From: Bacilli bacterium
Lineage (GTDB): Bacteria; Bacillota_I; Bacilli_A; RF39; UBA660
Length of the DNA: 64,000 nucleotides
Direction: 5' to 3'
NCBI GenBank assembly: GCA_045545595.1
Contig: JAZQBG010000003.1
Location: 91,462 to 155,461, forward strand
Under the pieces are notes generated by a model. That model worked only from the letters and a program-made list of their open reading frames with translations, did not search any database and was not told the origin of the DNA. The position numbers and the translations under genes are program-made. This document shows, in pieces, positions 6,689-27,167 of this stretch (position 1 is its first letter; each line of letters begins with the position of its first letter).

Positions 6689-6692
6689 AACT

Positions 6693-9663: not shown

Positions 9664-9778
9664 TCACCCTCGACTTTTACTATATATACCAAAATAATAA
9701 CATATTTTCGACAAAAATAAAACATATAATACTTTTTTTGTTGCTTTTTTCTCTATTAATTTATATAATTTAAAAGAG

Positions 9779-9976: not shown

Positions 9977-9993
9977 AAAATAAGCGATTGCGC

Positions 9994-10482: not shown

Positions 10483-10504
10483 TCTTAGTATTATCTTTTA
10501 TTTG

Positions 10505-13123
10505 TTAATTAAACTTATTTTTTATTTTTTTATATACTTCCATAACTATCAATACAATAGTTGAGATTAAGAATAAATATAATATATGAATAGCTGGAAT
10601 TGAAATTGTTTGAAGAAACTTAGACATAAACGGTACTTCCATAACAATTATTTGTAAGAGAACTGAACATATAACTCCACCAACGATTAATTTATTAGTT
10701 TTTAATGGAACACTAAATGCTGAATTACTTTCACTTCTACAGTTAAATACATGGATATTTTGTATAAATACCATTAATGCCATAATGTAACCTCTTGCCA
10801 TTGTAACTTCCATATTTAATACATTTATTAAAATGTACCATGTAATAAATACTACAGTTCCTATTACTAAACCTGATACTATAATTTCTCTAAGCAAGTT
10901 TTTATCGAATAATGGTTCTTTTGGATTTCTTGGTTTTTCCTTCATAATACCATTTTCTGCTTTTTCAAATGATAAAGCAAAATCTTGAATACCATCCGTT
11001 ACTACATTAAGCCATAAAAGTTGTATTGCGACTAATGGCATTGGTAAATCAAATAAAATTGATAAACAGAAGAATAATACTTCAGCCATACCACAAGAAA
11101 TTAAGAATAAAATTATTTTACGTATATTAGAATACGCTACACGTCCTTCTTTTACACCAGCAACAATTGATTTAAAATTGTCATCAATTACTATCATATT
11201 TGCAGTTTCACGCGCTATATCAGTACCACTTCCCATAGCGATACCAATATTCGCACTTTTTAATGCTGGAGCGTCATTTACTCCGTCACCAGTAACCGCA
11301 ACAAACTCACCTTGTCTTTTTAATGATTCAACAATTTCAAGTTTTTGCAAAGGTGTTACTCTTGTAAATATTATCTTACTAGATACAAATTTATCAAATT
11401 CTTCTTTACCTTTTGATAAGTATTCATCTACTTCTTCACCATTAGTTACATCATCATATGTATTAGTTAATTTTAAATCTTTTGCAATAGAAAATGCAGT
11501 TAGAGGATGATCCCCTGTAATCATTAAAACTTTTATACCTGCATTTCTACATTCATTAATAGATGCAACTGCTTCTTTACGTATTGGGTCAATAAAACCA
11601 ACCATACCCATGAATGTTAATTTCTTTATATCATGTTCACAATAACTATCTTGTTTTTTAACTTTACCATTTGCGATAGCTATAACTCTATATCCATCTT
11701 TCGCAAGACTTTCATTTTGTTCTTCTAGTATATTAGAATTTATTTTTTCATCAATTAAATTAATATCACTACAAAATTCTTTTACTTTTTCTAATGAACC
11801 TTTTACTGTACAATATGTTTCACCATTCATTTCATAGAATACTGCTGAATATTTATTTTCTGATTCATATGGAATAATTTCTAAAGTTTTAATATTGTGA
11901 GTTTTTATATTTAATTTTTTACCTAGAACTAGGAAAGCAATATCTATTGAGTCACCTAGTCTTTTATTTTTATCAATACTAGCCTCATTATTTAATACAC
12001 CATATAAAGCTAGATCTTTTGCATACTCTATGTTTTCACCTATTACTTCACCTTTAATATCATAACCAGTACCAGATATTTCATAGCTAGTGTTATTTGG
12101 AAGTAATATCTTCTTTGCAGTTTGTTCATTAACTGTTAATGTACCAGTTTTATCACTTGCAATTACTGTACAACTTCCTAATGATTCAACAGAGTTTAAT
12201 TTTCTTACAATTACATTTTTCTTAGCCATTTTATTAGAAGCAATCGTTAGAGCCATAGTTAAAGCAAGGGGTAATCCTTCTGGCATTGCAGAAACTGCTA
12301 ATGCAATTACTGACAAAAATATTTCATGATATGGTACATTTTTAGTTATTAGTAGAAATGTAATGATTACAGCTACAATTAATACTAACATACTAATTTG
12401 TTTAGAAAACTTTTCCACACGTATTGTTAATGGAGATTTTTCTTCTTTTGTCTCATTTATACTGTGTGCGATTTTTCCTATTTCAGTATTAAGTCCTACT
12501 GCAACAACTATAGCTTTAGCTCTACCTGTTACTACATTTGTGCCAGCAAATAACATATTACTTTGTTCTGTTATAGCAGCATTACTTTTTGAAACTATAT
12601 CACTTGTTTTATTTACTTGTACACTTTCACCTGTTAATATTGATTCATCAACCATAAAGTTATGAGCTTCTACAATTCTTAAATCAGCCGATATTTTGTC
12701 TCCTGATTCTAAAAGTACATAATCTCCTATTGTTAATTCAGTAGAATCTATTACAATTACTTTGTCGTTTCTTACAACTCTAGTTTTAACTGTTACTAAT
12801 TTTTCTAAAGCTTCAGCTGTATTGTTAGCTTTATTTTCCTGATAAGTTCCCATTATAATATCAATTAATACTATAGCTATTATTGCAACTGCATCAATTA
12901 CTTCACCAACTATTAATGATGCTAAAATTGCAAACAATAACAATATTATAATTGGATCTTTAAATTCATTAAAAAATATTTTTATAACACTGTCTTTTTT
13001 CTTTTTTGGTAATGTATTCTTGCCATATTTCTTAATTCTTTTATTAGCTTCTGCACTACTTAATCCTTTACTACTTGTATTTAATTCTTTTTCTAAATCT
13101 TCTATTTTTTTATTGTAAAACAT
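10505..13123 (-). CDS. P-type cation-transporting ATPase (type IIA Ca2+-ATPase-like)
   Basis: 872 aa with 'ASDKTGTLT' phosphorylation site, 'TGDGVNDAPALK' hinge and 10 TM segments. GGAGGAG RBS. Confidence 0.9.
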   Translation of the reverse strand: MFYNKKIEDLEKELNTSSKGLSSAEANKRIKKYGKNTLPKKKKDSVIKIFFNEFKDPIIILLLFAILASLIVGEVIDAVAIIAIVLIDIIMGTYQENKANNTAEALEKLVTVKTRVVRNDKVIVIDSTELTIGDYVLLESGDKISADLRIVEAHNFMVDESILTGESVQVNKTSDIVSKSNAAITEQSNMLFAGTNVVTGRAKAIVVAVGLNTEIGKIAHSINETKEEKSPLTIRVEKFSKQISMLVLIVAVIITFLLITKNVPYHEIFLSVIALAVSAMPEGLPLALTMALTIASNKMAKKNVIVRKLNSVESLGSCTVIASDKTGTLTVNEQTAKKILLPNNTSYEISGTGYDIKGEVIGENIEYAKDLALYGVLNNEASIDKNKRLGDSIDIAFLVLGKKLNIKTHNIKTLEIIPYESENKYSAVFYEMNGETYCTVKGSLEKVKEFCSDINLIDEKINSNILEEQNESLAKDGYRVIAIANGKVKKQDSYCEHDIKKLTFMGMVGFIDPIRKEAVASINECRNAGIKVLMITGDHPLTAFSIAKDLKLTNTYDDVTNGEEVDEYLSKGKEEFDKFVSSKIIFTRVTPLQKLEIVESLKRQGEFVAVTGDGVNDAPALKSANIGIAMGSGTDIARETANMIVIDDNFKSIVAGVKEGRVAYSNIRKIILFLISCGMAEVLFFCLSILFDLPMPLVAIQLLWLNVVTDGIQDFALSFEKAENGIMKEKPRNPKEPLFDKNLLREIIVSGLVIGTVVFITWYILINVLNMEVTMARGYIMALMVFIQNIHVFNCRSESNSAFSVPLKTNKLIVGGVICSVLLQIIVMEVPFMSKFLQTISIPAIHILYLFLISTIVLIVMEVYKKIKNKFN

Positions 13124-13140
13124 GTTACTCCTCCATTCTA

Positions 13141-13256
13141 CTAAAAAAGACTTATCTGTATTATTACAGACAAGCCTCGTTAATTGATATTAAATATTAT
13201 AATATCGAGGTTGTCTATTTATTACGTAGAGTATATTATTAACTACTCCCTCGTAT
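13141..13256 (-). ncRNA. candidate yybP-ykoY-like (Mn2+) riboswitch / leader attenuator of the P-type ATPase gene
   Basis: Minus-strand promoter TTGATT-16-TATAAT. The leader starts 'ACGAGGGAGUAGUU', containing the GGGAGUAG hallmark of the yybP-ykoY L1 element. An intrinsic terminator hairpin (CTTGTCTGTA..TACAGATAAG plus U-run) ends about 20 nt before the RBS. Confidence 0.35.
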
Positions 13257-13282
13257 ATTATAATTATAACACTTAAATGAAA

Positions 13283-14443
13283 TTAATCAATTCTATTCTT
13301 TTTATTGTTAAAATTAATTTTAAAACTTTTAGTTTTTTTATTATCTTCAGTTTTTTCTTCGTATTCATTTTGAATAATATCAATGTCATTATTTTTAAAC
13401 ATTTCAATTGCTAATTTAGTAGCATATTTAACACAACTTAAATCATGAAAGTCCATATTTTTTTCATCTATTACATCTATTTTTGGAATCTCTTCACCAT
13501 CGAGAAAATCACTATCTTCCATTTCATCATATTCTTTTAAAAAAGTATCATATTTATAAAATACACTTTCTAAACATAATTTTTTTGTTACGTAATTTAT
13601 TAATCCTATAGTTGAAATTGTCATTCCATATTTATCAACATATTCTTCAACTTTCTTTTCATATATATTAACTTTTTCTGAATTAATTCTATTTACATAA
13701 TTATCCCAATTTTTTTCTATTCTACGAACTGATTTTTTAATTGGTTCTAATAAATCCAAGTGTACTAAAGCATATGATGATAGATGTTTGTCGTACTTTT
13801 TAATATAATCTGTTAGAAAAGTGTTTATACCATAGGCTTTAAGTTTATTAAAACTTTTAAAATTCATATGTAATATTTGTTCTAAAGTGTAGTCTTCGTT
13901 TTCATAAAAGATTTCATCAATTAATCTTTTTGCAAAGAAGTTACAAATAGTATTACTTTTTTCATATGTATCAAGAATATACAAAAATCCTAATCCATAT
14001 TCTTCTTTTAAACTTTCGTCTTTTGTTTGTTCTAGTGCAGCAGCAAGTTTAATTAACTCTATTTCATAGAAAGATGATGCTTGTAGTTTAAAACTACATA
14101 ATTTAGGATCTTCTAATGCCATATCACTAGTAATACCTTTAGATATTAAAATAGTTAATTCATGTGCATTTATATCGTCTTCATCAACTGTTTTTAGATA
14201 GTTGTTTCCAACATCTACAATAAAGTTAAAATCATTTTTAAATGTTTCAACTATAAATTTTACAAAATTATAATTCTTCTTAACTTCATCAGAGCATAGA
14301 TTATATAAATTTTTATCTTTAGTATGTTTTATTACCTCTATCATAAATTCATAATCATTTTCTAATTCATCAATATCATAATCAACTAGTTCGTTTCCTA
14401 CAATATAATCAAAAACTAATTTTTTACTATACTTTTTAACCAT
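13283..14443 (-). CDS. hypothetical protein (386 aa), no recognisable domain
   Basis: Intact ORF with AAGGGGA RBS. Its own promoter region carries the operator-like palindromes listed below. Confidence 0.5.
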   Translation of the reverse strand: MVKKYSKKLVFDYIVGNELVDYDIDELENDYEFMIEVIKHTKDKNLYNLCSDEVKKNYNFVKFIVETFKNDFNFIVDVGNNYLKTVDEDDINAHELTILISKGITSDMALEDPKLCSFKLQASSFYEIELIKLAAALEQTKDESLKEEYGLGFLYILDTYEKSNTICNFFAKRLIDEIFYENEDYTLEQILHMNFKSFNKLKAYGINTFLTDYIKKYDKHLSSYALVHLDLLEPIKKSVRRIEKNWDNYVNRINSEKVNIYEKKVEEYVDKYGMTISTIGLINYVTKKLCLESVFYKYDTFLKEYDEMEDSDFLDGEEIPKIDVIDEKNMDFHDLSCVKYATKLAIEMFKNNDIDIIQNEYEEKTEDNKKTKSFKINFNNKKNRID

Positions 14444-14592
14444 AAAAATCCCCTTAATAAATTTGATAGTATATAGTTTACAAAATTTTTATGATTTTTT
14501 CAACTTAATATTGAGTTTTTCTGAAATATATATTATTTTTAAGACTTGACTTTTTGTAATAAAAAAGCATATTGGTCTCTTCAGGGGGACCG

Positions 14593-14745
14593 TTACGAAT
14601 AGTTCGTAATTTGAATAACCCTTTTTAAATCTTTATTACGATTGGTTCGTAATTACCTGCTTATCCCCTATTTTACCCCTATAAGTTAGTGTGTCGGTTC
14701 CTATATGGTTCCTGATATAAAATTCTACATTCAAAACGGTTCCTA
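14593..14745 (-). promoter_or_regulatory. two palindromic operator-like sites plus three GGTTCCT direct repeats upstream of the 386-aa gene
   Basis: TTACGAAtagTTCGTAA (14593-14609) and ATTACGAttggtTCGTAAT (14635-14653) are perfect inverted repeats about 42 bp apart. CGGTTCCTA occurs at 14695 and 14737, with GGTTCCT at 14707. Confidence 0.4.
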
Positions 14746-14765
14746 GAATATTTTTTATTATAAAT

Positions 14766-14794
14766 ATTCAAAAAAACAGATATTTCTATCTGTT
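14766..14794 (-). terminator. rho-independent terminator of the 951-aa gene (overlaps its stop codon)
   Basis: Minus-strand AACAGATAgaaaTATCTGTT hairpin followed by TTTTTTT. Confidence 0.65.
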
Positions 14795-17641
14795 TAATGG
14801 ACTTGACGTTTGACTTTTTGATGCATTTTGTTTCATTTCTATTTCTACTGCTCTTGCAATATTAACTAAATCATTTAAATTCATTACTATATTAAAATTC
14901 CTAGTACCATCATTATATTCATCATATAAATAAATTTTATCTTCTACAACACTATTGTCTTGTTCTTTTAGTGCTTTAAATCTAAAATGAGCAACTGAAT
15001 TTCTTAATTTATTTATTATATAGTTCTTCATATTTGTAAAATCTCGTTGTTCATTTGTTTTATCATCAATAACAAATTGTTTTAAATATTCTTCTTGACC
15101 AAATTCAATACCTGTATTTGTTCTTATAAATTGAATTGAATCATTGTATGAATTATGTATAAATTGTATTGGTTCAATATTTATATTTTCAAAATTTATT
15201 GTTCTATCGATATTGCTAAAAACACTATTTACATATATTAAAGAAGCTACAATTTTAGGATTATCAATGCCAAAAATACTTTTACAAATATTAACATTAT
15301 AATTAGTAAGCATTTCATTTAATAGTTCTGTTTCGCAAGAAAAAAATTCATTCGGAAACTCATCTAATCTTTCATAATTCATACCGACTCTATTAAGTAA
15401 AATTTCAATATTATCAAAATTGAATTTACAATTCATCAATTTTACAGGCAATTTAGACATATCTATATTAATTTCTTTTTTAGTAAAATAATCTATTATT
15501 TGTGGTGAAGATATATAATTTCTATACATTTCATCAGCTATCATTGTCACATCAATATTGTTATTTTTGGCATTTTCAAATAATCTAATAATTGATTCTA
15601 TTCTATTATTATGACTTACCCAATTAGGTAATTTCATTAATGCATCCAATGAAATATCATATTTTTTGGCAGCTTCAAATATTTTTATTACACCATCTTC
15701 TCTTACGAAACTCGACATCCACATCGCTGTTGCAAATCGTTGTTCTTCGTTCTTTTTATCATTTTCTACATATTTACAAATATCGGAAATATTAATGTTA
15801 TTTTTTTCAAAATAATCTGTTAATTTCTCAAATGACTGCGGATAAAAGAATATATCACTTGGTAAACTTGACATAATAATATCGCCATATTTAGTTCTTA
15901 TTTTTTTATAAAAATTAAGAGATTCTTCTAAATTATCCCACATTTCTGGCAAAGGTAATTTAAGTGCTTCCTCTATGTCTATATCTGATCCTTTAATAAA
16001 TTGCAGAAAATATTTAGTACTATCGTAATTTCTAAACATTACGTCCGGGAATTCAATTATTTCTTTTAATGAAATATTTAATACTTCTCTATTCTTTAAA
16101 AGTTCAATTAAGACATCGTGATTAAAAAAACCATTAATATGAATTTTTAATAAATCTTCCATTGCTACATTTAGATTTTTTATATCAGTTAAAAATCTTA
16201 CAATATTTTCTTCTTCTAAAATTGAATCTGTTTTTATATATAAACTTGGTAATAGGTCCATCGACATACTATTCTTTTTTAAACTTTGTGATACTATCGC
16301 TAGTCTTTTTAAATTCACTTGATAAACTTCACTATTTTTTAAAATTTCAAATATTTTTTCTAATTCTATATTATTTTCCTTTGCATAATTTATAACATTA
16401 ATAATTTCATCACTATTTGAAAAACTTTTAATCTCATATACAATATTTTCATCTATGTCGCTACTTTTCAAATATTCATAAGTCTTTTTAAATTGTTCTT
16501 TGTTACGTAAAATTGAATACCTATTATTAGAGCAAAACACTTTTTCAATATCTAAATTGTTATTTATAATATATTCAATAAAATTTATTATTTCATGTGA
16601 ATTAAGCCAATCTGATTGAGTCATTTTAGTTATATATTTTGTATCTAATTTTTTATTAAAAAAATAATCTAATAATTCACAATCAAAGTTTTCTATTTTA
16701 TCTGTTAGAGAGCAAAATGCTGGAGACGGCAACAAAGATAATTGTTCCAACGAAAACATACCTTTTTTTACATAATTAAATATAACATCTATTACGTATT
16801 CTTCTTTACCAAAAATTTCAACTGGTAATTTATATAATTTATGAATATCGTTATCACAATAAGCGATTAATTTTGTCATAACATTTGGACTTACATTATA
16901 AAAGAAACTATTTAATTGTTTTGGATCAAATTGTAACTCTCTTAATATTGGATACGCTATCGAATCTGTTGTTTCTCGTATTTCTTTATCCTCTTCTTTG
17001 GCAATAATTCGTCCTCTATTAAATCCATCTATATAATCACTAGGAATAAGTACTTTAAAAAAATTCTTTTTATTATCAATTTCAATTAATTTACCTAATT
17101 TTAAATTTGAGTTTCTGTGTTCAAAAGAATCGCGTATTTTTTGAAAAATTAAAATAGCTTTTTTTAATTCTACGATTTCTTTTTCTATATTTATTTGAGA
17201 ATTCGTATTTAATCCATGTATTTTGACTTTTGAAAGCTCACTTTCTTTACCAATTTTTTGAAAATAAGTATTAATAAGTGTTACATTTTTATTTAACTCT
17301 GCTATTTGATTTCTTATTTCGTTTGTTGATGGTTTGATAGATTTAAGTCTATGTAATTCTTTTCTTAATTCTTCTTGTTCTTGATTCCATTGTTTGAATA
17401 TATATTGAGAAATAAAAATTATATCCCATATATCCTGTATGTCTTTATCTAAATCATAATTAATGTCTTTATCCACTTTACTAAGAATCAAGTCTTTTTT
17501 CTTAACAAAATGAGAAACAATATTTTCATAATATTCACTACTATTGATATCTAAACCATTGATACCATATAATCTTTGTTTAGCTAACTCAAGTGATGAT
17601 TCGTTTAATATTTCCTTTACTAACTCGTACAATCTTTCCAC
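14786..17641 (-). CDS. large repeat-containing protein with two HEPN-like R-x4-H motifs (candidate RNase defense effector)
   Basis: 951 aa, GTG start with AGGAG RBS 24 nt after the dpnB stop. Only two R-x4-H occurrences: 'KIRDSFEHRN' (R170/H175) and 'KLRNSVAHFR' (R880/H885). The central region has about six repeats of a roughly 40-aa module (...NNIDIEKVF / NNIELEKIF / NNINISDIC / NNIDVTMIA...). Confidence 0.5.
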   Translation of the reverse strand: MERLYELVKEILNESSLELAKQRLYGINGLDINSSEYYENIVSHFVKKKDLILSKVDKDINYDLDKDIQDIWDIIFISQYIFKQWNQEQEELRKELHRLKSIKPSTNEIRNQIAELNKNVTLINTYFQKIGKESELSKVKIHGLNTNSQINIEKEIVELKKAILIFQKIRDSFEHRNSNLKLGKLIEIDNKKNFFKVLIPSDYIDGFNRGRIIAKEEDKEIRETTDSIAYPILRELQFDPKQLNSFFYNVSPNVMTKLIAYCDNDIHKLYKLPVEIFGKEEYVIDVIFNYVKKGMFSLEQLSLLPSPAFCSLTDKIENFDCELLDYFFNKKLDTKYITKMTQSDWLNSHEIINFIEYIINNNLDIEKVFCSNNRYSILRNKEQFKKTYEYLKSSDIDENIVYEIKSFSNSDEIINVINYAKENNIELEKIFEILKNSEVYQVNLKRLAIVSQSLKKNSMSMDLLPSLYIKTDSILEEENIVRFLTDIKNLNVAMEDLLKIHINGFFNHDVLIELLKNREVLNISLKEIIEFPDVMFRNYDSTKYFLQFIKGSDIDIEEALKLPLPEMWDNLEESLNFYKKIRTKYGDIIMSSLPSDIFFYPQSFEKLTDYFEKNNINISDICKYVENDKKNEEQRFATAMWMSSFVREDGVIKIFEAAKKYDISLDALMKLPNWVSHNNRIESIIRLFENAKNNNIDVTMIADEMYRNYISSPQIIDYFTKKEINIDMSKLPVKLMNCKFNFDNIEILLNRVGMNYERLDEFPNEFFSCETELLNEMLTNYNVNICKSIFGIDNPKIVASLIYVNSVFSNIDRTINFENINIEPIQFIHNSYNDSIQFIRTNTGIEFGQEEYLKQFVIDDKTNEQRDFTNMKNYIINKLRNSVAHFRFKALKEQDNSVVEDKIYLYDEYNDGTRNFNIVMNLNDLVNIARAVEIEMKQNASKSQTSSPLNR

Positions 17642-17665
17642 AATTTCATCTCCTATTTAAGGTGT

Positions 17666-18523
17666 TTATTTTAAACTATTAATAATTCCATGTTCTAAAT
17701 CTTCTATATTGTATATTGTATCCATTTCATTAAATGTTTCTTCAAGATTTTTTCTAGCACTTAACCATCCTAATCCATCAGTAAACCAAATAAAAGTTAC
17801 ACCATTTACTTTTTTAGATTCTTCGGCTAACATCTTATAACTTCTTGCTGTTTCATTTAATTTTGAACCACCACTTGAATAAAAATTAGTTTCTATTACA
17901 TATACTTGATTCTCTGTTTTAATAACAAAATCAAATCTTTTTGTTGATACATTGTTGCCAGACATTGCAGACAAATCTAAATTCCATTTTTTCTCAATAT
18001 CAGATAAGTACATTTCTTTGAAGTAACTAACGTCTTTTTTATATCCTCCTTTTTCGATATATTCTTCAACAAGATTTTCCATTAGATGTCCACCACGATT
18101 TTTTCTACCATTAGAATCTAAGCCAACTTCTATTCCTAAAACATAATCATAAAGGTTATTTATAATATGATTTTGTAATAAATCAAATAATCCTGATTCT
18201 CTCATAAATCTTATGTAATCTTCTATGGAATAAATCATTTTATCAAATTTAAATAAGTATTCATTCATTTGATCTTTAATAAATATCTCACGAGAACGAA
18301 CTGCTAATAATAATGGAATACATTCCAAAGTTTCTGGATATTTAATTAGTATATTTTGAAATTCTTCTTCGATATTTTGGCTACCGATTAATGAATTTAA
18401 AATATTTAATTCTACTTTTACTTTATCAACATTTTTATATATTTTTTCAAAATCAACATAATAAGTATAATCTGAGATACTTGTTTTAAATTTACTTAAC
18501 CATTCATTAAAATCTCTTTTCAT
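17666..18523 (-). CDS. dpnB: type II restriction endonuclease, DpnII (R.DpnII/DpnB)-like, GATC-specific
   Basis: 285 aa, the same size as DpnB. It sits downstream of the two DpnII-type methylases in dpnM-dpnA-dpnB order. Confidence 0.8.
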   Translation of the reverse strand: MKRDFNEWLSKFKTSISDYTYYVDFEKIYKNVDKVKVELNILNSLIGSQNIEEEFQNILIKYPETLECIPLLLAVRSREIFIKDQMNEYLFKFDKMIYSIEDYIRFMRESGLFDLLQNHIINNLYDYVLGIEVGLDSNGRKNRGGHLMENLVEEYIEKGGYKKDVSYFKEMYLSDIEKKWNLDLSAMSGNNVSTKRFDFVIKTENQVYVIETNFYSSGGSKLNETARSYKMLAEESKKVNGVTFIWFTDGLGWLSARKNLEETFNEMDTIYNIEDLEHGIINSLK

Positions 18524-19296
18524 TTAGACTCACTATCCTTTCTTCTTATTGTTAAATCTAAATATTCTTTTTCTTTTTCAATACCGATATATTTTCTATT
18601 TAACCTATTAGCTACTATACCTGTTGTTCCACTACCATTAAAAGGATCTAATACTAAATCTTTTTCATCTGTAGAAGATAATATTATTTTTTCTAATAAT
18701 TCAATTGGTTTTTGAGTGGGATGCTTCCCACATTTCTTTTCGCTTGGTTTTGTTAATGGTGTTTCCCATACATCTTTCATCTGCTTATTGTTATTTAGTT
18801 TTTTCATAACATCATAGTTGAACTTATGTTTAGCTTTAGACATGTCTTTTTTTGCCCATAAGACGGTTTCTGTTGAATGAACGAAAGCACGACAACTAAT
18901 ATTAGGCGGAGGGTTTAATTTCTTCCAGGTAATGTTATTAATTATCTTAAACCCCTCTTCTTCAAGTGCCATTCCTATTGAATAAATATTATGCATAGTG
19001 CCACTTATCCAAATAGTACCTTCATCCTTTAAAACTTTCTTACAAGCTCTTATCCACTTTTTATTAAAATTATGTTTTTCTTTGACGGATATTTTTTCAT
19101 CCCACTTACCTTTATTTACCGATACCATTTTTCCACCACTACAAGTGATTCCATCTCCTGATAAAAAATAAGGTGGATCTGCAAATATCATATCAATACT
19201 TTGTGGCTCTATCTTTTTCAATAATAAAAGTGCATCTCCATGTAGTAATTTAAAATCGTCTTTATCATAGTAGAACTTTTTACTCATGTTATGCAC
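18520..19296 (-). CDS. dpnA: N6-adenine DNA methyltransferase, DpnA (M2.DpnII)-like
   Basis: 258 aa. 'IFADPPYFLS' (DPPY) and 'LDPFNGSGTTG' (FxGxG) in the beta-class order. High similarity to S. pneumoniae DpnA as I recall it. Confidence 0.9.
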   Translation of the reverse strand: MHNMSKKFYYDKDDFKLLHGDALLLLKKIEPQSIDMIFADPPYFLSGDGITCSGGKMVSVNKGKWDEKISVKEKHNFNKKWIRACKKVLKDEGTIWISGTMHNIYSIGMALEEEGFKIINNITWKKLNPPPNISCRAFVHSTETVLWAKKDMSKAKHKFNYDVMKKLNNNKQMKDVWETPLTKPSEKKCGKHPTQKPIELLEKIILSSTDEKDLVLDPFNGSGTTGIVANRLNRKYIGIEKEKEYLDLTIRRKDSESK

Positions 19297-19319
19297 CTCC
19301 TAATAATATTATTGTAAAA

Positions 19320-20174
19320 TTATTCTTCAAATCCTCTTTTATTTTCGTAATTTGTTATAATTACTTCTTCTACTTTTCCCCTTTTCTTTCCATTTGAATT
19401 TATATTTCTTTTTGCTTCAATTACATGAATATTAAAATCTTTATATAAATCTTTTACTAAAGTTGTGTTATGATTCGATAACATCACGTAACATCCTTTA
19501 TCTGCTAATTCTTTATATACTCTAGCTAATCTTACTTGCTCTTCTTTTCCAAATCCATTTTCTGTATAACTATTGAATGTTGACGTTTCAGAATCATATG
19601 GAGGATCAAAATATATAAAATCTCCTTTTTTAGCATCTTTTACAGCTTCTTCAAAATCTTTATTTAAAATTTTTACATCACTGAAGTTTAAGTATGAATG
19701 AATAATACCTAAATTTTGTCCATCATATGTATTAACTTTTGCCTTTCTATTGAATGGTACATTAAATTCATTTTTACTATTAACTCTATATAATCCATTA
19801 AAACAAGCTTTATTCAAATAAATTGTTCTAGCGCTTCTTTTATAATCCGGCATTCTTTTAAACTTTGTTTTATCTCTATCTTTATTTCTTATTTCATAAT
19901 AATATTCTTCTGAATGATTTGCTTCATGATGATTTAATTCATTACACATTTTATTAAATTTTATTTCATCTTTAATACAATTAAAAACATTCATCAATTC
20001 TTCATTATAATCATTTATTACTGCCTTTTTTGGAGATAATTCAAACAATAAAGCTCCACCACCAACAAATGGTTCGTAGTATGTATTATACTCATCAGGA
20101 GCATACATTTTTAGCTTGTCAATTATTTGTCTTTTTCCCCCTGCCCATTTTACAAATGGTTTTCCCTTTATCAT
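19320..20174 (-). CDS. dpnM: Dam-family N6-adenine DNA methyltransferase, DpnM (M1.DpnII)-like
   Basis: 284 aa. 'EPFVGGGALLF' motif I, 'FNGLYRVNSKNEFNVP' and 'FIYFDPPY' motif IV in the alpha-class order. C-terminal 'MLSNHNTTLVKDLYKDFNIH...VTNYEN' matches DpnM. Confidence 0.9.
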   Translation of the reverse strand: MIKGKPFVKWAGGKRQIIDKLKMYAPDEYNTYYEPFVGGGALLFELSPKKAVINDYNEELMNVFNCIKDEIKFNKMCNELNHHEANHSEEYYYEIRNKDRDKTKFKRMPDYKRSARTIYLNKACFNGLYRVNSKNEFNVPFNRKAKVNTYDGQNLGIIHSYLNFSDVKILNKDFEEAVKDAKKGDFIYFDPPYDSETSTFNSYTENGFGKEEQVRLARVYKELADKGCYVMLSNHNTTLVKDLYKDFNIHVIEAKRNINSNGKKRGKVEEVIITNYENKRGFEE

Positions 20175-20255
20175 ATTGGTACCTCCTGAATATTATAATC
20201 ACTTTAGTTCATTATATCATATTTATAAGAAATTATTGAAGAAACAGAAAAAAAT

Positions 20256-21164
20256 TTAATTAAAATTTTTTTCTAAGTGTGGTAAATCATAATAAAGTAA
20301 TCTATTAAAATTACCTTTAACAAACAATGAATCTTTTCTTAATATGCTTCTAATTTTTTTGTCTATTGTTATATCCCAACGCCATGGTCTACGATATTCT
20401 GCAATTAATAAATGTAAAACACCAGATATATTACAAATGTATTTCTTTAAATAGTTCGAATCTAATGAGTTGGAATCAATATTTTCTAAATCATATATTA
20501 TTTCATCAATGTTTTCGTATAACAACTCTTTAACTCTTAAATTATCAACTCCTATAAATTTTTCATTACTATTAACTAAAAGCCCCATTTTATTTATATA
20601 TTTATTATTTAAGTATAATAAATATTTTTTTAACTTTTCACCTTTGCAATTTAATTTAACATTATTTTTAAGTTCACTAATTTTTCTATAAAAGTCATAA
20701 TAATTGTCTTCATCTATATATATACTATTAACTACTTTATAATTCATGAGTGACAACAAATCATTTATATACCATTCTGACATGCACATTATAGAATAAT
20801 ATATGTCATATTGATTTATTAGTTTATTATGCCATTCCATTTCAGAACTATAAATAGTTAAAAAAACTATTAATATAACATTTGTTATTAAAAGTTCTTT
20901 CATTTCCCATAAACCTTCAAAAAAACTATTATATTCTCCAATATGTATTCCTAAAAAAATTATAGCAATTATAACAATAAGAATAAATATAATACTAACT
21001 AAATTAGTTTTATTATTTAGAAATTCTCTTTTTATAAATCTTTTTATTCGATTAATTTTTAAGATTGTTTTTAAATACTCTATTGTTATCTTATTTTTCA
21101 AACTAACTTTATACTTTGATTTAAAATGCTTTTTTCCGTATTTAACTAATGCCATGATTGTCAT
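20256..21164 (-). CDS. hypothetical membrane protein (2 TM) upstream of the R-M cassette
   Basis: 302 aa, Lys-rich N-terminus, two TM helices, C-terminal soluble domain. Confidence 0.4.
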   Translation of the reverse strand: MTIMALVKYGKKHFKSKYKVSLKNKITIEYLKTILKINRIKRFIKREFLNNKTNLVSIIFILIVIIAIIFLGIHIGEYNSFFEGLWEMKELLITNVILIVFLTIYSSEMEWHNKLINQYDIYYSIMCMSEWYINDLLSLMNYKVVNSIYIDEDNYYDFYRKISELKNNVKLNCKGEKLKKYLLYLNNKYINKMGLLVNSNEKFIGVDNLRVKELLYENIDEIIYDLENIDSNSLDSNYLKKYICNISGVLHLLIAEYRRPWRWDITIDKKIRSILRKDSLFVKGNFNRLLYYDLPHLEKNFN

Positions 21165-21574
21165 TCCTTTCTAATGATAATTATTATAATATATCACATA
21201 AGTTTTTAACAACTAAATATTAATTATTTACCAAAACCACCGTAATTATATTGAAAAACGCTCTTTTTTCTATTTTATCTCAATATTTATAAAATTTTTA
21301 TTTTTACATCTTTAATTTTATGTGTCAAAAATAATATCTAAAAGGGGCCTAAATTGTACCTATTACAGTTATATTAGTTTACAAATTTGTAATTACTGAG
21401 TTTAAGACACAAAAAATGGAGCGCTATGCGCTCCTTCAGGGGGTTTTGGTTGAATACACTCTCACATAGAATCGTAAGAGTGAGCGTGTTATCTTATCAC
21501 GCTACATTCATGATATTAGAAAATGACAAAAATGTCAATAATATTTATACCAATATTTTCTAAAATTTTAGTGA

Positions 21575-23572
21575 TTAATTCAAATTCCTAATGTTTTCAA
21601 TGGTTTTCTTAATATGGCTATTTGTGTCAAGTGTGTCAACTAAATCTGTTTTTAAAAACTCTAATGAATCTTCTTTAGCTTGCATAAGTATTTTAAAATC
21701 ATCCTTAATATTAGCAATCTTAAAGCTCATATCACCACTTTGTTTAACACCAAATAAATCTCCTTGTCCTCTTAGTTTAAAATCTTGTTCACTTATCTCA
21801 AAACCATCATTAGTATTTTCCATTATCTGTAATCTTTCTTTAGCTTTATCACTAATCAAAATACAATAAGATTGTAAATCATTTCTTCCTACTCTACCTC
21901 TCAATTGGTGAAGTGTTGATAATCCAAATCTATTAGCGTCAAATATTGCGATTACAGTAGCGTTTTTTACATCTACTCCAACTTCTATTACAGTGGTACT
22001 TATTAATATGTTGATTTCATTTTTAGAAAACTTGTCCATAATTTCTTCTTTTTCATCTGGACTCATTTTACCATGTAACATTTCTATATTTCTATTTGGA
22101 AATGCTTTTTTAAACTTTTCTTTAAGCTTAACAACATTTTCCATATCAGACTTTTCACTTTCTTCTATTAATGGCGCAATAACATATACTTGATGATTAT
22201 TATCTAATTCTTGTTTCATTAGAGTTAAGACATCAACTATTTCCTTATTAGTTTTAACTTTAGTAATAATATCTTTTCTACCACTAGGTCTAGTTTTAAT
22301 ACTTGATATATCCATGTCACCATAAATTGTTAAAGCATAAGTTCTAGGTATAGGTGTCGCACTCATGTATAAAATATCTGGCATAGTTCCTTTGTTTCTT
22401 AAATTAGATCTTTGATTAACTCCGAATCTGTGTTGTTCATCAGTTATAACTAAACCTAAATTATTATATTTAACTTCATCTTGAATTAATGCATGAGTAC
22501 CAATCACTAAATCTATTTCATTGTTTTCTAATTTTTTATAAATTTCTTTTTTCTCTTTCTTAGGAGTACTTCCTGTAAGAAGTTCAACATTTATTCCTGT
22601 ATCTTTAAATAGTTTCTTAATATTATCATAGTGTTGTTTAGCTAAGATTTCAGTTGGTGCCATAAAAGCAGATTGATAACCACCTAAATAGTTTATATAA
22701 CACGCTATTATACTAACTATAGTCTTTCCACTACCAACATCACCTTGTAAAAGTCTATTCATACGTTTAGGTTCTGTCATATCTATTTTGATATCATCTA
22801 CAGCCTTTTTTTGGTCTACGGTTAAGTCAAAAGGTATAGTGTTAATAAAATCAGTTAATTTATTTTCATCTATTGTTCTTTTAAGTCCTATATTATCACT
22901 TTGATTTTTTAACTTCAAACAATTTATCTTTAACATAAATGTAAATAGCTCTTCATACTTTAATCTTATTTGAGCCTGTTTAATACTGTTTATATCATTA
23001 GGACTATGAATTAGTTTAACAGCTTCTTCTTTGTCCATAAAATTATATTTTTGGACTAGATAAGGAGGTATATCATCTTCTAATTCATTTATATTAGATT
23101 TTATAGCTTCTTCTATATAATTAGATAAATTCTTTTTAGGTAATCCATTAGTAGTTCTATAAATACTTTCTATTTTTGTACCATTTATTTTTTCAAATCT
23201 AAAATCTGAAGCAACTATTGTATTTTTCTTACTATCCCATTTTCCTATTATCAAAACAGTTTTACCAATTTCAAAATGTCTTTTCATAAATCCTCTATTA
23301 AAGATTACAACATTAACAATCATATTATCAGTTTCAATTCTAAAACTCATTTTATTCATGTTACCTCTAAGTCTAATTAGAGTTGGTATTTTTTCTATTA
23401 CCCCTTCAACACAAATTTTATCTCCATCGCTCATTTCTGTTAAATTATTTAATTTGATTACTTCATATCTAAATGGATAATAATTTAGTAAATCATTAAT
23501 TGTATAGATATTTAATTTGTTTAGTAGTTTTAAAGATTTGGGTCCAACACCAGGTAGTTCAATAAGTTCCAA
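21575..23572 (-). CDS. recG: ATP-dependent DNA helicase RecG
   Basis: 665 aa with 'GDVGSGKT' Walker A, 'TDEQHRFG' DEQH box, 'SATPIPRT' and 'QLRGRVGR' motifs. Confidence 0.9.
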   Translation of the reverse strand: MELIELPGVGPKSLKLLNKLNIYTINDLLNYYPFRYEVIKLNNLTEMSDGDKICVEGVIEKIPTLIRLRGNMNKMSFRIETDNMIVNVVIFNRGFMKRHFEIGKTVLIIGKWDSKKNTIVASDFRFEKINGTKIESIYRTTNGLPKKNLSNYIEEAIKSNINELEDDIPPYLVQKYNFMDKEEAVKLIHSPNDINSIKQAQIRLKYEELFTFMLKINCLKLKNQSDNIGLKRTIDENKLTDFINTIPFDLTVDQKKAVDDIKIDMTEPKRMNRLLQGDVGSGKTIVSIIACYINYLGGYQSAFMAPTEILAKQHYDNIKKLFKDTGINVELLTGSTPKKEKKEIYKKLENNEIDLVIGTHALIQDEVKYNNLGLVITDEQHRFGVNQRSNLRNKGTMPDILYMSATPIPRTYALTIYGDMDISSIKTRPSGRKDIITKVKTNKEIVDVLTLMKQELDNNHQVYVIAPLIEESEKSDMENVVKLKEKFKKAFPNRNIEMLHGKMSPDEKEEIMDKFSKNEINILISTTVIEVGVDVKNATVIAIFDANRFGLSTLHQLRGRVGRNDLQSYCILISDKAKERLQIMENTNDGFEISEQDFKLRGQGDLFGVKQSGDMSFKIANIKDDFKILMQAKEDSLEFLKTDLVDTLDTNSHIKKTIENIRNLN

Positions 23573-23660
23573 ATTATCATCCCTTTCTAATTTAATTATA
23601 TATAATTTTGAAGTGAAACAAAAGAAAATGAAAAAAATTTTAAAAAAATGTTCAAAATTG

Positions 23661-23800
23661 TTGACAAATCACTCAAGATGAATTAGTATAAGAGTCACCA
23701 ATTCCCAATTAGGCGAATTGGTGCTAGTATCACACTAGCCAACCCCTTTTTATTCTTTTTTGAAGGTTACCCTCAGGGGGTGTAACCTTCTTTTTTTTGT
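23661..23800 (+). ncRNA. candidate small RNA (promoter + about 105-nt structured transcript + intrinsic terminator)
   Basis: TTGACA(23661)-17-TAGTAT(23684). Hairpins CACCAATTC..GAATTGGTG and CTAGT..ACTAG. Terminator AAGGTTACcctcagggggtGTAACCTT plus T8 at 23763-23799. No ATG anywhere in the transcript. Confidence 0.3.
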
Positions 23801-23807
23801 ATACAAA

Positions 23808-23838
23808 TATAAAAAAACAGAGACTTTCTTAGTCTCTG
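23808..23838 (-). terminator. rho-independent terminator of rpsU
   Basis: Minus-strand CAGAGACTaagaaAGTCTCTG hairpin followed by TTTTTTT. Confidence 0.7.
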
Positions 23839-24023
23839 TTTCTTCTTGCGTTTCTTCTAGAATTTTTGATTCCTTCTTTTTTTTCTATTCTTCTTTTTAC
23901 ACCTGGTTTATCATAGTGTTTTCTTTTTTTAATTTCAGAAGGGACTCCACTTTTAGCAAATTTTTGTTTAAAGATTTTAAGTGCACCATCGACATTATCG
24001 TTTTTAACTGATACATGTACCAT
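23829..24023 (-). CDS. rpsU: 30S ribosomal protein S21
   Basis: 64 aa 'MVHVSVKNDNVDGALKIFKQKFAKSGV...RRNRD'. Confidence 0.9.
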   Translation of the reverse strand: MVHVSVKNDNVDGALKIFKQKFAKSGVPSEIKKRKHYDKPGVKRRIEKKEGIKNSRRNARRNRD

Positions 24024-24129
24024 TTTATTTCCCTCCCTTCTTGCTTTCGTGTTTAATTATAACACAACACTTTGTTTTCCACAAGAAAAAAATAACTTAA
24101 AAACACAAAAAAGGACAAATATTGTCCTT

Positions 24130-24300
24130 TTAAAGCATATTAATCAATACTTCTTGAATTAATCTTAATGTAGTCCCGCATATTCTACCACAATTTAATA
24201 TAAAATCTATAACTATATTAAATGTTGATAAAATTATTGGACTAAGTAATATTACAGATAAAATAAAAAGCGGCTTCCTATATTTTTGAATATATTCCAT
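24130..24300 (-). CDS. putative bacteriocin immunity protein (small membrane protein)
   Basis: 56 aa 'MEYIQKYRKPLFILSVILLSPIILSTFNIVIDFIL...' immediately after the second bacteriocin peptide. It is followed by a terminator (AAAGGACAatatTGTCCTTTT at about 24102-24128). Confidence 0.4.
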   Translation of the reverse strand: MEYIQKYRKPLFILSVILLSPIILSTFNIVIDFILNCGRICGTTLRLIQEVLINML

Positions 24301-24301
24301 A

Positions 24302-24472
24302 TTATCCTAGAGAACATGTTTGTCCACTATTTATTCTTCTAATCGCAGTACCTAAGCTTCTTCCTACTTCTAAAATCGAGTTGATTGCTTTGGTAAATGC
24401 AGAAACTAAACTTCCTGATATATTTATTCCACCTTCTATTTCTAATAAACCATCTTTATTTAATTCTTTCAT
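24302..24472 (-). CDS. class II bacteriocin precursor with double-glycine leader (peptide B)
   Basis: Not in the ORF track (under 60 aa). 'MKELNKDGLLEIEGG|INISGSLVSAFTKAINSILEVGRSLGTAIRRINSGQTCSLG'. Leader has hydrophobics at -4, -7 and -12. GAAAGGAAG RBS. Confidence 0.65.
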   Translation of the reverse strand: MKELNKDGLLEIEGGINISGSLVSAFTKAINSILEVGRSLGTAIRRINSGQTCSLG

Positions 24473-24486
24473 TAATATCTTCCTTT

Positions 24487-24621
24487 CTAATTACAATTTA
24501 ATGGTCTTACATAACCATCAATTACTCCTACTAAAAATATAACCGCACCAATTATTCCAGCAATACCCCAGGCTCCTATTCCTCCGCTAACATTCATCAT
24601 TTCTTCTTTAGTTAATTCCAA
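24487..24621 (-). CDS. class II bacteriocin precursor with double-glycine leader (peptide A, Gly-rich hydrophobic)
   Basis: Not in the ORF track. TTG start with GGAAAGG RBS. '(M)ELTKEEMMNVSGG|IGAWGIAGIIGAVIFLVGVIDGYVRPLNCN'. Mature part has GxxG/GxxxG motifs typical of two-peptide (IIb) bacteriocins. Confidence 0.55.
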   Translation of the reverse strand: MELTKEEMMNVSGGIGAWGIAGIIGAVIFLVGVIDGYVRPLNCN

Positions 24622-24625
24622 ATTA

Positions 24626-25066
24626 TCATTCCTTTCCAAAAACTAATTCTTTGATTATTTCAAAACCATATTTATTATCATAATTTATTTTAAATTCAAC
24701 AATTGAATTATTAGATTTATTAAGATCATCAACTTCTATTACTATACTTTGATATGGTATATCATTTTCTATTACTGGGATTGAAACGTCTTTTATTTTG
24801 TAAGAGAATTTATTTTTATTAATAGTAAGTTTATTATTATCTAATAACTTATAAGAATCAGTATAACTTATTTTAGTTTCTATTATACCTTTATTATTAA
24901 CTATTCCAATTCCTTTGTAATAGTATTGATATTTGAAGAATAACAGTGAAATTAAAACTATAATTAGTATTATTAAGATTAGTGTAAAACTATAAAATTT
25001 TTTTGGTAATAAAATTTTTGGACTTTTATATTCTTCAATATTAACTAAATTATCCATTAGAACCAT
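24626..25066 (-). CDS. bacteriocin secretion accessory protein (short, single TM)
   Basis: 146 aa overlapping the exporter stop. N-terminal TM then a beta-rich domain, in the position normally held by an LcnD/HlyD-type accessory protein. Confidence 0.4.
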   Translation of the reverse strand: MVLMDNLVNIEEYKSPKILLPKKFYSFTLILIILIIVLISLLFFKYQYYYKGIGIVNNKGIIETKISYTDSYKLLDNNKLTINKNKFSYKIKDVSIPVIENDIPYQSIVIEVDDLNKSNNSIVEFKINYDNKYGFEIIKELVFGKE

Positions 25067-27167
25067 CTTTTCTTTCTAAAATATTTTTAATAATACCACT
25101 TTCCATACTAACAACCTTATCAAACAAGTCCATATTTTCTAACCTATGTGATACTACTATTATTGTTTTATCTTTCATATTTTTAAACATTCTTTTAAGT
25201 ATTCTTCTTTCCATATCTACGTCTATTTCATTTAGAGCTTCATCTAAAAGAATTATATTAGAACTCTCCATGAGCGCCCTACATAATATAATTCTATTTC
25301 TTTCCCCACCTGATATATTAAAGCCATTTTCTTCTAATAAAGTATCATAACCTAAATATTTATTATTACAAATTTTATCTACTTCTGTTAACCTAGACTT
25401 CTTTAAAAATTCATTATAATCTATATCTTTATTTAATACTATATTGTTAAATATTGAGTCAGTAAACAATGTTTCATTTTGTGAAACATAGGTAATATTT
25501 TCTCTTAATTCTTTGGTATTGTAATCATTGATATCTTTATCATCGATAAATATTTTACCTCGCTCTATTTCACTATATTTTAACAGTGATTTAAGCAATG
25601 TTGATTTACCACATCCACTATTACCTATTATCATTATTTTACTTCCTCTAGAGGTGTTTAAATTAATATTATTAAGTATTAAATCTTTATCATTAATAGA
25701 ATAACTAAAATCTTTAATTGTAATATTACCCATTATTTTATTTCCAGTATATTTATGGTCAATTTCTAATTTTTCCATATCTATCTCATATAATTCATTT
25801 ACTCTTTTAAAAGAGGATAAAGCATATCGTATTAGGGGTTCTAATTCTAATATATTTTTTATAGGATTAAGAAAATATATTAATAATGAATTATATGTGA
25901 TTAAATCACCTATAGAAAGCGTACCCTTCATTACTTTTAAATAACCAACAAACAATATTACAAAAAGTCCTAGTCCTCCTATTAAATCTTTTAAAAACTG
26001 ACTTATATTATGATTCTTATTAACTTTATGCTCAATATATAAATTATCTATATATTGATTTTCAACTTTATTAATTGTTCTATTCTGTAGATTCATACTT
26101 TTTATAGTCTCAAATCCATTTATAGATTCAATTAAATTAGAATTTATTTGTGCGTTTTTTTCTTGGCTTAAATTTATCAATCTCTTGTATATTGGAGAAA
26201 AAATTAAAGCTACTATTAGATATAAGACAAATATAATAATTGTAATTAAAAATAAATCTTTATTTATTCCTAATAATATTGCCCCTGAAATTATAATAAG
26301 TAATAAATCTACAAAGAGTGTTACAATAATTTTACTTATTGCCTCTTTTATATAATTTAAATCACTTATCCTTGATAATATCTCTCCAGTTGTTTTGTTT
26401 TTGAAATAATCGTATGGAAGGTTCATAACATGACTAAAGGTTTTGGTGAATAATTGATAGTCTATCTTTTGATTAGAATACAATATTAATTGATTTCTGA
26501 AGAACTCACATAAAGTTTTTAACAGGATAAGTATTACAAATAAAAATGAAATAATATAGAAGTTATTTATAGAACTTACCACTAAATCATCGATGATTAT
26601 TTTAAAATAGTATGAATTAATAATATTGAACAAAGTTATAAATAACGATAATAATACAATATTGACAAAAACTTTTTTATTACTAGAAACAAGAAATTTT
26701 AAAACATTTTTTACATTATTATCTGTTTTATAGGTTGGTATTTTTTTAATTGGATAGAACGTTATTATAACTTTAGACCACATCTTATCAAACTCATCAA
26801 AACTTAACTTTTTAACTCCGTAATTTGGATCCATAATCGTGACTATTTTCTTTTTATAATTTAAATCATAGACTACTACGTAATGTTTATAAGATTTATT
26901 TATGACTAAATGTGCAATAAATGGAACATCAATTTTATTATTTAAATCATTCAAAGATTTACACTTTATGCCTTTAGAGACAAATCCTAATTTTTCCGAA
27001 GCTAAAGTTAAATGATAAGCAGTAGTTCCTATTTTAGTTGTTTTTGTGAGTTCTCTTAATTTTTCTAGACTAATATTTCCACCATAATACCTGATTATTG
27101 ATAGAAGACATGAGGCACCACAATCTTTTATGCCTTCTTGTTTAACTATTGGTATTTTCTTTTTCAT
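25050..27167 (-). CDS. bacteriocin ABC transporter with N-terminal C39 peptidase domain
   Basis: 705 aa. 'CGASCLLSIIRYYG' catalytic Cys, 'HYVVVY' His, 6 TM, Walker A 'GNSGCGKST', signature 'LSGGERNRI' and Walker B 'ILLDEA'. Confidence 0.9.
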   Translation of the reverse strand: MKKKIPIVKQEGIKDCGASCLLSIIRYYGGNISLEKLRELTKTTKIGTTAYHLTLASEKLGFVSKGIKCKSLNDLNNKIDVPFIAHLVINKSYKHYVVVYDLNYKKKIVTIMDPNYGVKKLSFDEFDKMWSKVIITFYPIKKIPTYKTDNNVKNVLKFLVSSNKKVFVNIVLLSLFITLFNIINSYYFKIIIDDLVVSSINNFYIISFLFVILILLKTLCEFFRNQLILYSNQKIDYQLFTKTFSHVMNLPYDYFKNKTTGEILSRISDLNYIKEAISKIIVTLFVDLLLIIISGAILLGINKDLFLITIIIFVLYLIVALIFSPIYKRLINLSQEKNAQINSNLIESINGFETIKSMNLQNRTINKVENQYIDNLYIEHKVNKNHNISQFLKDLIGGLGLFVILFVGYLKVMKGTLSIGDLITYNSLLIYFLNPIKNILELEPLIRYALSSFKRVNELYEIDMEKLEIDHKYTGNKIMGNITIKDFSYSINDKDLILNNINLNTSRGSKIMIIGNSGCGKSTLLKSLLKYSEIERGKIFIDDKDINDYNTKELRENITYVSQNETLFTDSIFNNIVLNKDIDYNEFLKKSRLTEVDKICNNKYLGYDTLLEENGFNISGGERNRIILCRALMESSNIILLDEALNEIDVDMERRILKRMFKNMKDKTIIVVSHRLENMDLFDKVVSMESGIIKNILERKDGSNG

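Follow-up and report, generated by a model that had tools for sequence, protein, structure and literature searches.

Two adjoining modules in a low-G+C member of the Bacillota: a DpnII-type restriction-modification cassette and a gene for a predicted dual-HEPN protein with a helical repeat array

We describe here a 64,000-nucleotide (nt) stretch of the genome of a Bacilli bacterium (assembly GCA_045545595.1, contig JAZQBG010000003.1, positions 91,462 to 155,461 of the forward strand), referred to as the window and numbered from its first letter. In it, three genes of a DpnII-type restriction-modification (R-M) system are followed, head to tail, by a gene for a protein of 951 amino acids (aa) that carries two HEPN-type Rx4H motifs (Table 1). 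The window has about 25% G+C, nearly all of its genes lie on the minus strand, and the sporulation genes for SpoIIIAH and GerM are among them. Given these two genes and the low G+C content, the host is therefore a spore-forming, low-G+C member of the Bacillota. Numbers of the form L001 to L029 denote the related contigs or loci with which the window was compared.

The DpnII-type cassette and the gene behind it

The identities of the three R-M genes are beyond chance, the family matches having E values of 1e-60 to 1e-110. The DpnM-like protein matches Pfam PF02086 (MethyltransfD12) at 4.4e-63 and TIGR00571 ("dam") with 277.5 bits against a cut-off of 114.85. Over residues 5 to 277 it aligns with DpnM of Streptococcus pneumoniae (PDB 2dpm, likewise 284 aa) at an E value of 3e-84. 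It has both an FxGxG and a DPPY motif, and its cluster at 90% identity contains 44 members. As for the DpnA-like protein, DPPY precedes FNGSG, which is the beta-class order. This protein matches Pfam PF01555 (N6_N4_Mtase) at 3.6e-63 and, over its full length, the PADLOC model MTase_II PDLC03371 (260 positions) at 6.8e-103, with CcrM (6e-62) and the "DpnA" of Helicobacter pylori (3e-33) as best PDB matches. The DpnB-like protein covers positions 1 to 277 of the 278 positions of Pfam PF04556 (DpnII) at 2.3e-110 and matches the PADLOC model REase_II PDLC03548 at 1.9e-102. The genes follow one another on one strand in the order M-A-B and with the tight spacing by which a DpnII cassette is recognized, dpnA and dpnB overlapping by 4 nt.

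Table 1. Features of the cassette and of the 951-aa gene, listed in the direction of the minus strand (positions in the window)
Feature	Position	Strand	Basis
Candidate promoter-like site upstream of dpnM, ATGATA-17-TATAAT	20192..20220	-	Consensus match, 10/12
dpnM-like gene, alpha-class (D12/Dam family) N6-adenine DNA methyltransferase, 284 aa	19320..20174	-	Pfam, TIGR00571, PDB 2dpm
dpnA-like gene, beta-class N6-adenine methyltransferase, 255 aa from ATG 19287	18520..19287	-	Pfam, PADLOC, PDB
dpnB-like gene, DpnII/MboI-family type II restriction endonuclease, 285 aa	17666..18523	-	Pfam, PADLOC, L022 orthologue
24-nt junction with the AGGAG ribosome-binding site of the 951-aa gene, no terminator	17642..17665	-	Sequence and terminator scan
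951-aa gene, GTG start; N-terminal HEPN-like domain, helical repeat array, C-terminal HEPN domain	14786..17641	-	Open reading frame, homologues, AlphaFold2 model
N-terminal Rx4H motif, R170-D-S-F-E-H175	17117..17134	-	Family alignment
About 12-14 degenerate helix-loop-helix repeats of 31-33 aa each, residues ~265-785	15287..16849	-	AlphaFold2, phmmer, Foldseek, repeat hidden Markov model
C-terminal HEPN domain, residues 849-940	14822..15097	-	Pfam PF18736
C-terminal Rx4H motif, R880-N-S-V-A-H885	14987-15004	-	Family alignment
Intrinsic-terminator-like hairpin AAACAGATA-GAAA-TATCTGTTT plus T run, overlapping the stop codon	14770..14795	-	Sequence, folding

Two starts have to be weighed for dpnA. 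The open reading frame (ORF) found mechanically, 19296-18520, begins with GTG 19296, 23 nt behind dpnM, and would give 258 aa. The true start is probably ATG 19287, 32 nt behind dpnM, because AGGAGG is found 8 nt upstream of it, the GTG itself sits within this AGGAGG, and the L022 orthologue (255 aa) uses the same ATG. A preliminary description of this DNA had reported a complete dpnM-dpnA-dpnB cassette with products of 284, 258 and 285 aa, resembling that of S. pneumoniae. Completeness is borne out by the Pfam, TIGR00571, PADLOC and PDB matches and by the intact catalytic motifs. The resemblance extends to gene order, sizes and families, for DpnM by direct comparison with 2dpm and for DpnA by profiles and order. 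The sizes hold for the first and last products, and 258 aa applies only to the GTG start.

The 951-aa gene follows at once. The 24-nt spacer, 17665-17642, reads ACACCTTAAATAGGAGATGAAATT and leads into GTG 17641. This start is backed by homologues that align from residue 1 (MxxLY...), and L007 and L011 have the identical GTG behind an identical AGGAG. Downstream, the gene ends in a weak hairpin of 9 bp (-8.2 kcal/mol) followed by T7, which is 100% conserved in L007. A consensus terminator scan missed this hairpin because its stem has too few G-C pairs. The preliminary description had also noted this spacing, this start and a terminator behind the gene, and sequence and scan agree with it. For promoters, the scan is uninformative, since in this AT-rich DNA the consensus matches are not enriched over expectation (75 found versus 78.6 expected).

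Two separately bounded modules

An important feature of the locus is that each of its two parts has its own limits, which can be placed to the nucleotide. The same three-gene cassette occurs in L022-L029 (one member of the DpnM cluster) with 92-93% aa identity and 89% nt identity, the DpnB-like protein being 93% identical to its L022 orthologue. The DNA similarity spans exactly 20176-17665, that is, from 2 nt before the start of dpnM to 1 nt past the stop codon of dpnB, and the flanks are unrelated to the window. There, a GmrSD type IV restriction gene lies 19 nt upstream of the cassette, and dpnB is followed by a strong terminator, a helix-turn-helix (HTH) gene, a large serine recombinase and an SLFN-like helicase, with no HEPN gene. 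Intact cassettes of this type were found on at least 24 gut-metagenome contigs. The region of GmrSD, cassette and recombinase (e.g., L022 5910-15815) looks like a mobile defence island.

The HEPN gene is bounded in the same manner. Its nearest relative outside the lineage, in L007 (78% identity), is located behind an unrelated Nuc_deoxyri_tr2 (nucleoside deoxyribosyltransferase-like) gene, and the DNA common to L007 and the window extends only from 17660, at the ribosome-binding site (RBS), to 14770, at the terminator, right after which the similarity stops. Since homology of the cassette ends at 17665 and homology of the HEPN gene begins at 17660, the module boundary lies inside the 24-nt spacer.

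We surveyed the neighbourhoods of 28 loci with a member of the HEPN gene family, several of which are near-identical copies, so that the independent contexts are fewer. When the three R-M proteins were searched against these 28 loci with tblastn, matches were found only in L011-L013. Elsewhere, the neighbours include metG/tatD, fmt, ppdK, GNAT, a LysM amidase, a Cas4-like/DUF2779 nuclease, a WYL regulator, RhuM, YjcQ and an integrase fragment; one family member is inserted inside a conserved metG-tatD-ksgA cluster. No partner gene is conserved across the contexts examined. The HEPN-family homologue in L015 has a WYL-domain HTH regulator as its immediate downstream neighbour (4578-5054); regulators of this type are found with some Cas13d loci and with other defence systems.

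The sequences L011-L013 derive from three samples of a single study, and their HEPN gene is 97.8% identical in DNA to that of the window. In L011, the cassette has shrunk to 190 nt from the start of dpnM and two pieces of dpnB, one of about 380 nt from its 5' part and one made up of its final ~90 nt; nothing of dpnA is left and stop codons abound in what remains, yet the HEPN gene is intact. It is moreover under purifying selection, with a ratio of nonsynonymous to synonymous substitution rates (dN/dS) between window and L011 of 0.20 (0.04 in the N-terminal third) and between window and L007 of 0.22. A nuclease dependent on the DpnII proteins for its control would not be expected to survive the loss of the cassette in L011. 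These comparisons indicate that the 951-aa gene is not a component of the DpnII system and that the locus consists of two independent modules. In L011, the decayed cassette and the HEPN gene lie just past the 3' end of ppdK (L011 1-250), and a degenerate second copy of this 3' end follows the HEPN gene, as if an insertion had displaced the original end of ppdK. Distant members of the family in L017 and L018 are also downstream of ppdK, which may be a recurrent insertion spot; the window has no ppdK.

Independence in this sense is compatible with joint expression. In the sister cassettes (L022), a terminator of -21 kcal/mol begins 3 nt past the dpnB stop codon. It is missing in the window, where the HEPN gene stands instead; between dpnB and the 951-aa ORF the scan detected nothing resembling a terminator, and the next such structure is the one past the HEPN gene. 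This makes co-transcription plausible. The HEPN module, as far as it is common to L007, starts at its RBS, so that no promoter comes with it. In L007, a perfect extended -10 element, TGTTATAAT, is found just before the RBS, within the non-homologous upstream sequence, and the spacer of the window has nothing comparable. The arrangement suggests that dpnM, dpnA, dpnB and the 951-aa gene are probably read as one transcript. Thus the preliminary description, which made the 951-aa gene the fourth gene of the operon, is plausible as regards the transcription unit. The implied membership in the DpnII system is not supported by the comparison of neighbourhoods in relatives that it had proposed as a check, in which the cassette was found without the HEPN gene in L022-L029 and the HEPN gene without the cassette elsewhere.

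Architecture and family of the 951-residue protein

The protein contains exactly two Rx4H motifs, R170-H175 and R880-H885. In an alignment of 30 diverse family members, three of the motif residues, H175, R880 and H885, never vary, and R170, which three members replace by K, and N881 are conserved in at least 90%. The C-terminal HEPN domain is established: residues 748-951 alone match PF18736 (pEK499_p136) with 31.8 bits (gathering threshold 26.6; E 1.4e-7), and precomputed database annotation assigns PF18736 to several homologues. Pfam scans of the full-length protein gave no match, PF18736 being absent even at E values up to 10. Whole-protein scans may thus lose real domains in long, compositionally biased proteins of AT-rich genomes. 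When the family profile was compared with the "HEPN family nuclease" of pEK499 (NC_013122), the two aligned on the motif helix, with a probability of only 41%. As for the N-terminal domain, its profile aligns with that of the C-terminal domain (hhalign) over 45 columns comprising the motif helix, a beta-hairpin and the next helix, with a probability of 64.5% and an E value of 6e-5. A model of residues 1-312 has a predicted local distance difference test (pLDDT) score of 87 and a predicted template-modelling score (pTM) of 0.82.

Between the two ends lies the repeat array, in an AlphaFold2 model of the whole protein whose mean pLDDT is 81. With phmmer, the array gave weak matches to designed left-handed toroids of 31-residue repeats (5byo, 4yxz). 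When the full model was compared with the PDB by Foldseek, the best matches were BurrH (4cj9, E 1.3e-4), 5byo and the TALE protein dHax3 (4osh), at template-modelling scores (TM-scores) of 0.14-0.20. Among family members, the central region is 289 to 604 aa long, and its mean identity to the window protein is 14%, versus 35-39% at the ends. It is acidic, with an isoelectric point (pI) of 5.0 here and of about 5 in most members. Because the solenoid is acidic, TALE-style wrapping of nucleic acid is disfavoured, and the array would better suit a protein-binding or autoinhibitory sensor.

The family is rare, unannotated and seated in low-G+C gut Bacillota. A HMMER search of 1.84 billion cluster representatives yielded 96 relatives (clusters at 50% identity) of 750-1170 aa, from uncultured gut Bacilli, "Tenericutes" and Clostridium metagenome-assembled genomes. 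In a database of 5.8 billion sequences, a profile search returned the same 8 proteins as a single-sequence search. No relative was found in IMG/VR and no significant fold match in BFVD, and we therefore discarded a phage origin of the gene. We found no literature on HEPN combined with TALE-like repeats, and the architecture, in which a HEPN-like domain, hypervariable alpha/alpha repeats and a PF18736 HEPN domain follow one another, appears to be new. Its rarity, patchy distribution and scattered insertion sites are typical of accessory genes of the conflict type.

Comparison with known systems brings out what is shared and what differs. The pneumococcal dpnMAB genes form an exchangeable cassette, and the single-stranded-DNA activity of DpnA is known for the pneumococcal enzyme (PMC3812788). 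The cassette described here has the same gene order, families and near-identical sizes and is likewise a precisely bounded exchangeable unit, in contrast to S. pneumoniae in a spore-forming host of about 25% G+C and with a gene in place of the terminator that follows the sister dpnB. HEPN genes in R-M operons have also been described, including the pEK499_p136 family, "some in operon with R-M genes" (PMC3710099, Anantharaman et al. 2013). The C-terminal domain here belongs to that family above the cut-off and has its RNSxAHF motif. However, the prototype is a single domain of 166 aa, whereas here the domain ends a protein of 951 aa with a second, divergent HEPN-like domain and an array of ~500 aa. 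PrrC and RloC are also HEPN-type nucleases in or behind R-M operons and plausibly back up restriction. Unlike them, the 951-aa protein has no match to an ATPase family and no Walker A motif, while PrrC and RloC have an ABC-type ATPase. Moreover, their embedding in R-M operons is conserved, whereas among the contexts examined the link of the 951-aa family to R-M genes is confined to the window and L011-L013, and the gene survives the loss of the R-M genes. TALE and BurrH (Bat) proteins and the designed toroids are the best structural matches of the array and share its two-helix repeats with a period of 31-35 aa, but the TM-scores are low, and the 951-aa array is acidic, lacks recognisable positions resembling repeat-variable diresidues and is fused to nuclease domains.

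The overall plan of the protein also recalls Cas13, especially Cas13b with a HEPN motif near each end: one chain of ~900-1100 aa, two distant Rx4H motifs and a helical middle, the N-terminal HEPN domain being probable here. Among the PDB results for the 951-aa protein, there was no match to Cas13 in sequence or fold. A guide RNA was sought as well. No direct-repeat family was found in 9000-26000 and no tandem array in the window that would point to a CRISPR array, and 14300-14900 gave no Rfam match for a guide or partner RNA at E values up to 1. The 342-nt intergenic region 14444-14785 was rejected as a partner RNA, its fold being no better than that of shuffled sequences (z +0.72) and the region not being conserved in L007. 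This region contains three copies of AGGAACC, two hairpins of the form ATTACGAAC-N-CGTAA(T) and a T run at its end. The region as a whole occurs once in the window, and L011 shares no more than its first 70 nt.

Possible roles of the locus and its surroundings

We consider it probable that the locus holds two independent, separately mobile defence modules, placed head to tail and probably read as one transcript. Module 1 (20176-17665) would be a DpnII-type R-M system in which DpnM methylates double-stranded GATC of the chromosome, the DpnA-like enzyme acts as a second GATC methylase, possibly on single-stranded DNA as suggested only by its S. pneumoniae counterpart, and the DpnII-family endonuclease cuts incoming DNA with unmethylated GATC. 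Module 2 (17660-14770) would be a single-gene unit, from RBS to terminator, encoding a predicted stand-alone dual-HEPN ribonuclease (RNase). HEPN RNases work as dimers. In the 951-aa protein, the two HEPN domains may pair within the chain to form one composite Rx4H RNase site, with the variable acidic repeat array acting as a sensor or regulator that holds back the nuclease as long as no phage-derived cue has bound. Cleavage of cell or phage RNA, once triggered, would stop growth and provide a second line of the abortive-infection type behind restriction. Activity, pairing, trigger and phenotype are all proposed by analogy with HEPN abortive-infection nucleases and Cas13.

Several observations weigh against this reading. 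With a pTM of 0.50, the full model is a weak guide to whether the two HEPN motifs touch. The N-terminal domain has no Pfam match, and the model of residues 1-312 gave no match in the PDB with Foldseek at an E value below 0.5, only coiled-coil noise; that this domain is HEPN is thus probable, resting on its motif and on the profile alignment at 64% probability. PADLOC and NCBIfam did not match the whole protein or three fragments of it, and there was no PHROG-type evidence of defence. Many family members lie among housekeeping genes and not in recognisable defence islands. On the side of expression, a promoter may be located inside the last 110 nt of dpnB. Finally, related contigs that lack the cassette are also depleted in GATC, at ratios of 0.37-0.73.

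That last point concerns the trace that restriction may have left in the genome. Of all tetranucleotides in the window, GATC shows the strongest depletion (58 observed versus 140-150 expected, ratio 0.39), and leaving the cassette out of the count makes no difference. Such a deficit is in keeping with long exposure to GATC restriction. We nevertheless rejected it as proof of an active system; since the cassette-free relatives are depleted likewise, the evidence that it provides is weak. The cassette itself presumably recognises GATC, and it is reasonable to expect that the host genome is methylated at this site. All related low-G+C contigs examined (L001-L026) are depleted in GATC, 1.4- to 2.9-fold, with or without the cassette. 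In the window, GGCC (0.39) and CATG (0.59) are depleted too, and together these depletions suggest wide exposure of the clade to several 4-base restriction specificities.

Within the preferred reading of two modules, a bolder proposal can be made tentatively, and we hold it to be possible, with more doubt than belief. The 951-aa protein would represent an undescribed class of stand-alone dual-HEPN RNases in which a variable, TALE-like array of 31-33-aa repeats takes the place of a guide RNA: by recognising its target, either a phage protein or a particular nucleic acid, the array would activate a composite HEPN site like that of Cas13. Here the gene would have been wired behind DpnII for joint expression of restriction and of abortive defence at the RNA level. 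If such an infection-triggered RNase with a protein-repeat sensor were real, it would be a new type of single-gene defence and a compact sensor-nuclease scaffold. The cassette itself is routine. What the locus offers beyond it is a view, at base-pair resolution, of defence operons built from plug-in modules: one DpnII cassette, bounded by its start and stop codons, stands behind GmrSD elsewhere and before a HEPN gene here, and has decayed in a close relative.

Among the alternatives, the one that fares best is still unlikely in our view. It holds that the 951-aa protein is not antiviral at all and that an accessory enzyme of RNA processing or turnover, or a toxin of another conflict, has come to lie behind the cassette by chance. 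Several homologues do lie among genes of translation and RNA metabolism (metG, tatD, ksgA, fmt), and both the absence of a PADLOC match and that of an IMG/VR homologue are in keeping with such a role. However, the gene is rare and patchy and has been inserted as a single gene into conserved clusters, its central domain is hypervariable, and YjcQ, RhuM, an integrase fragment, a Cas4-like nuclease or a WYL regulator is present in some of its contexts; such traits mark conflict genes and not housekeeping enzymes.

We also regard it as rather improbable that the four genes form one integrated system. In it, the HEPN protein would serve DpnII as a functional partner or guard, as PrrC does in the EcoprrI operon, and would be silenced by the R-M proteins and freed when a phage blocks restriction. 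The 24-nt spacing on the same strand, the missing terminator and the probable common transcript would be expected of such a system. The junction of dpnB and the HEPN gene is also present in L011, at 97.8% identity, and must therefore be older than the split of the two lineages, and HEPN genes within R-M operons are a known theme (PMC3710099). Against this stand the separate occurrence of the modules, with homology bounds in the spacer, and the finding that no other family member examined adjoins an R-M gene of these classes. In L011, the HEPN gene has remained under purifying selection after decay of the cassette, although a dependent nuclease should have been lost or become lethal.

Far less credible is a guide-free analogue of Cas13, in which the repeats would read nucleic acid one by one, in the manner of TALE, BurrH or PUF proteins, and so guide the HEPN site to RNAs. 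The best PDB folds (BurrH, dHax3 and left-handed alpha/alpha toroids), the period of 31-33 aa and the position of the array between two HEPN domains are in its favour. However, TM-scores of 0.14-0.20 may reflect a generic two-helix repeat, a pI of about 5 is unlike that of repeat proteins that wrap nucleic acid, and the degenerate repeats show no obvious hypervariable pair of positions. Equally hard to credit is a cassette that, as in L011, is decaying or inactive, which would leave the HEPN gene alone functional: a close relative has lost the cassette and the endonuclease stands as the single member of its 90%-identity cluster, but each of the three ORFs runs the full length of its profile, DPPY and FxGxG are intact, and the three are 92-93% identical to the intact cassette of at least 24 other contigs.

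The genes that flank the two modules add some minor observations. Between recG and dpnM, on the minus strand, a 302-aa ORF (20256-21164) with hydrophobic N-terminal segments has no match in Pfam, NCBIfam or PADLOC, and its exact sequence is absent from the protein collection. It lies outside the blocks common to L011 or L022 and may be one more of the island's accessory genes. Downstream of the HEPN gene, also on the minus strand, a 386-aa ORF (13283-14443) has a faint match to DUF4116 repeats (E 0.005) and is a singleton cluster in a collection of 15 billion proteins. An Rfam scan of the whole window found only a T-box and two tRNAs: the T-box leader (47489-47674, plus strand, 98.9 bits) lies upstream of a 428-aa ORF (47937-49223), and the pair of tRNA-Leu and tRNA-Arg is at 6605-6769 on the plus strand. 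Lastly, 24626-27167 on the minus strand encodes an ABC exporter of 705 aa with a C39 peptidase. A 146-aa ORF for a membrane protein overlaps the 3' end of the exporter gene, and the pair resembles a bacteriocin export locus.

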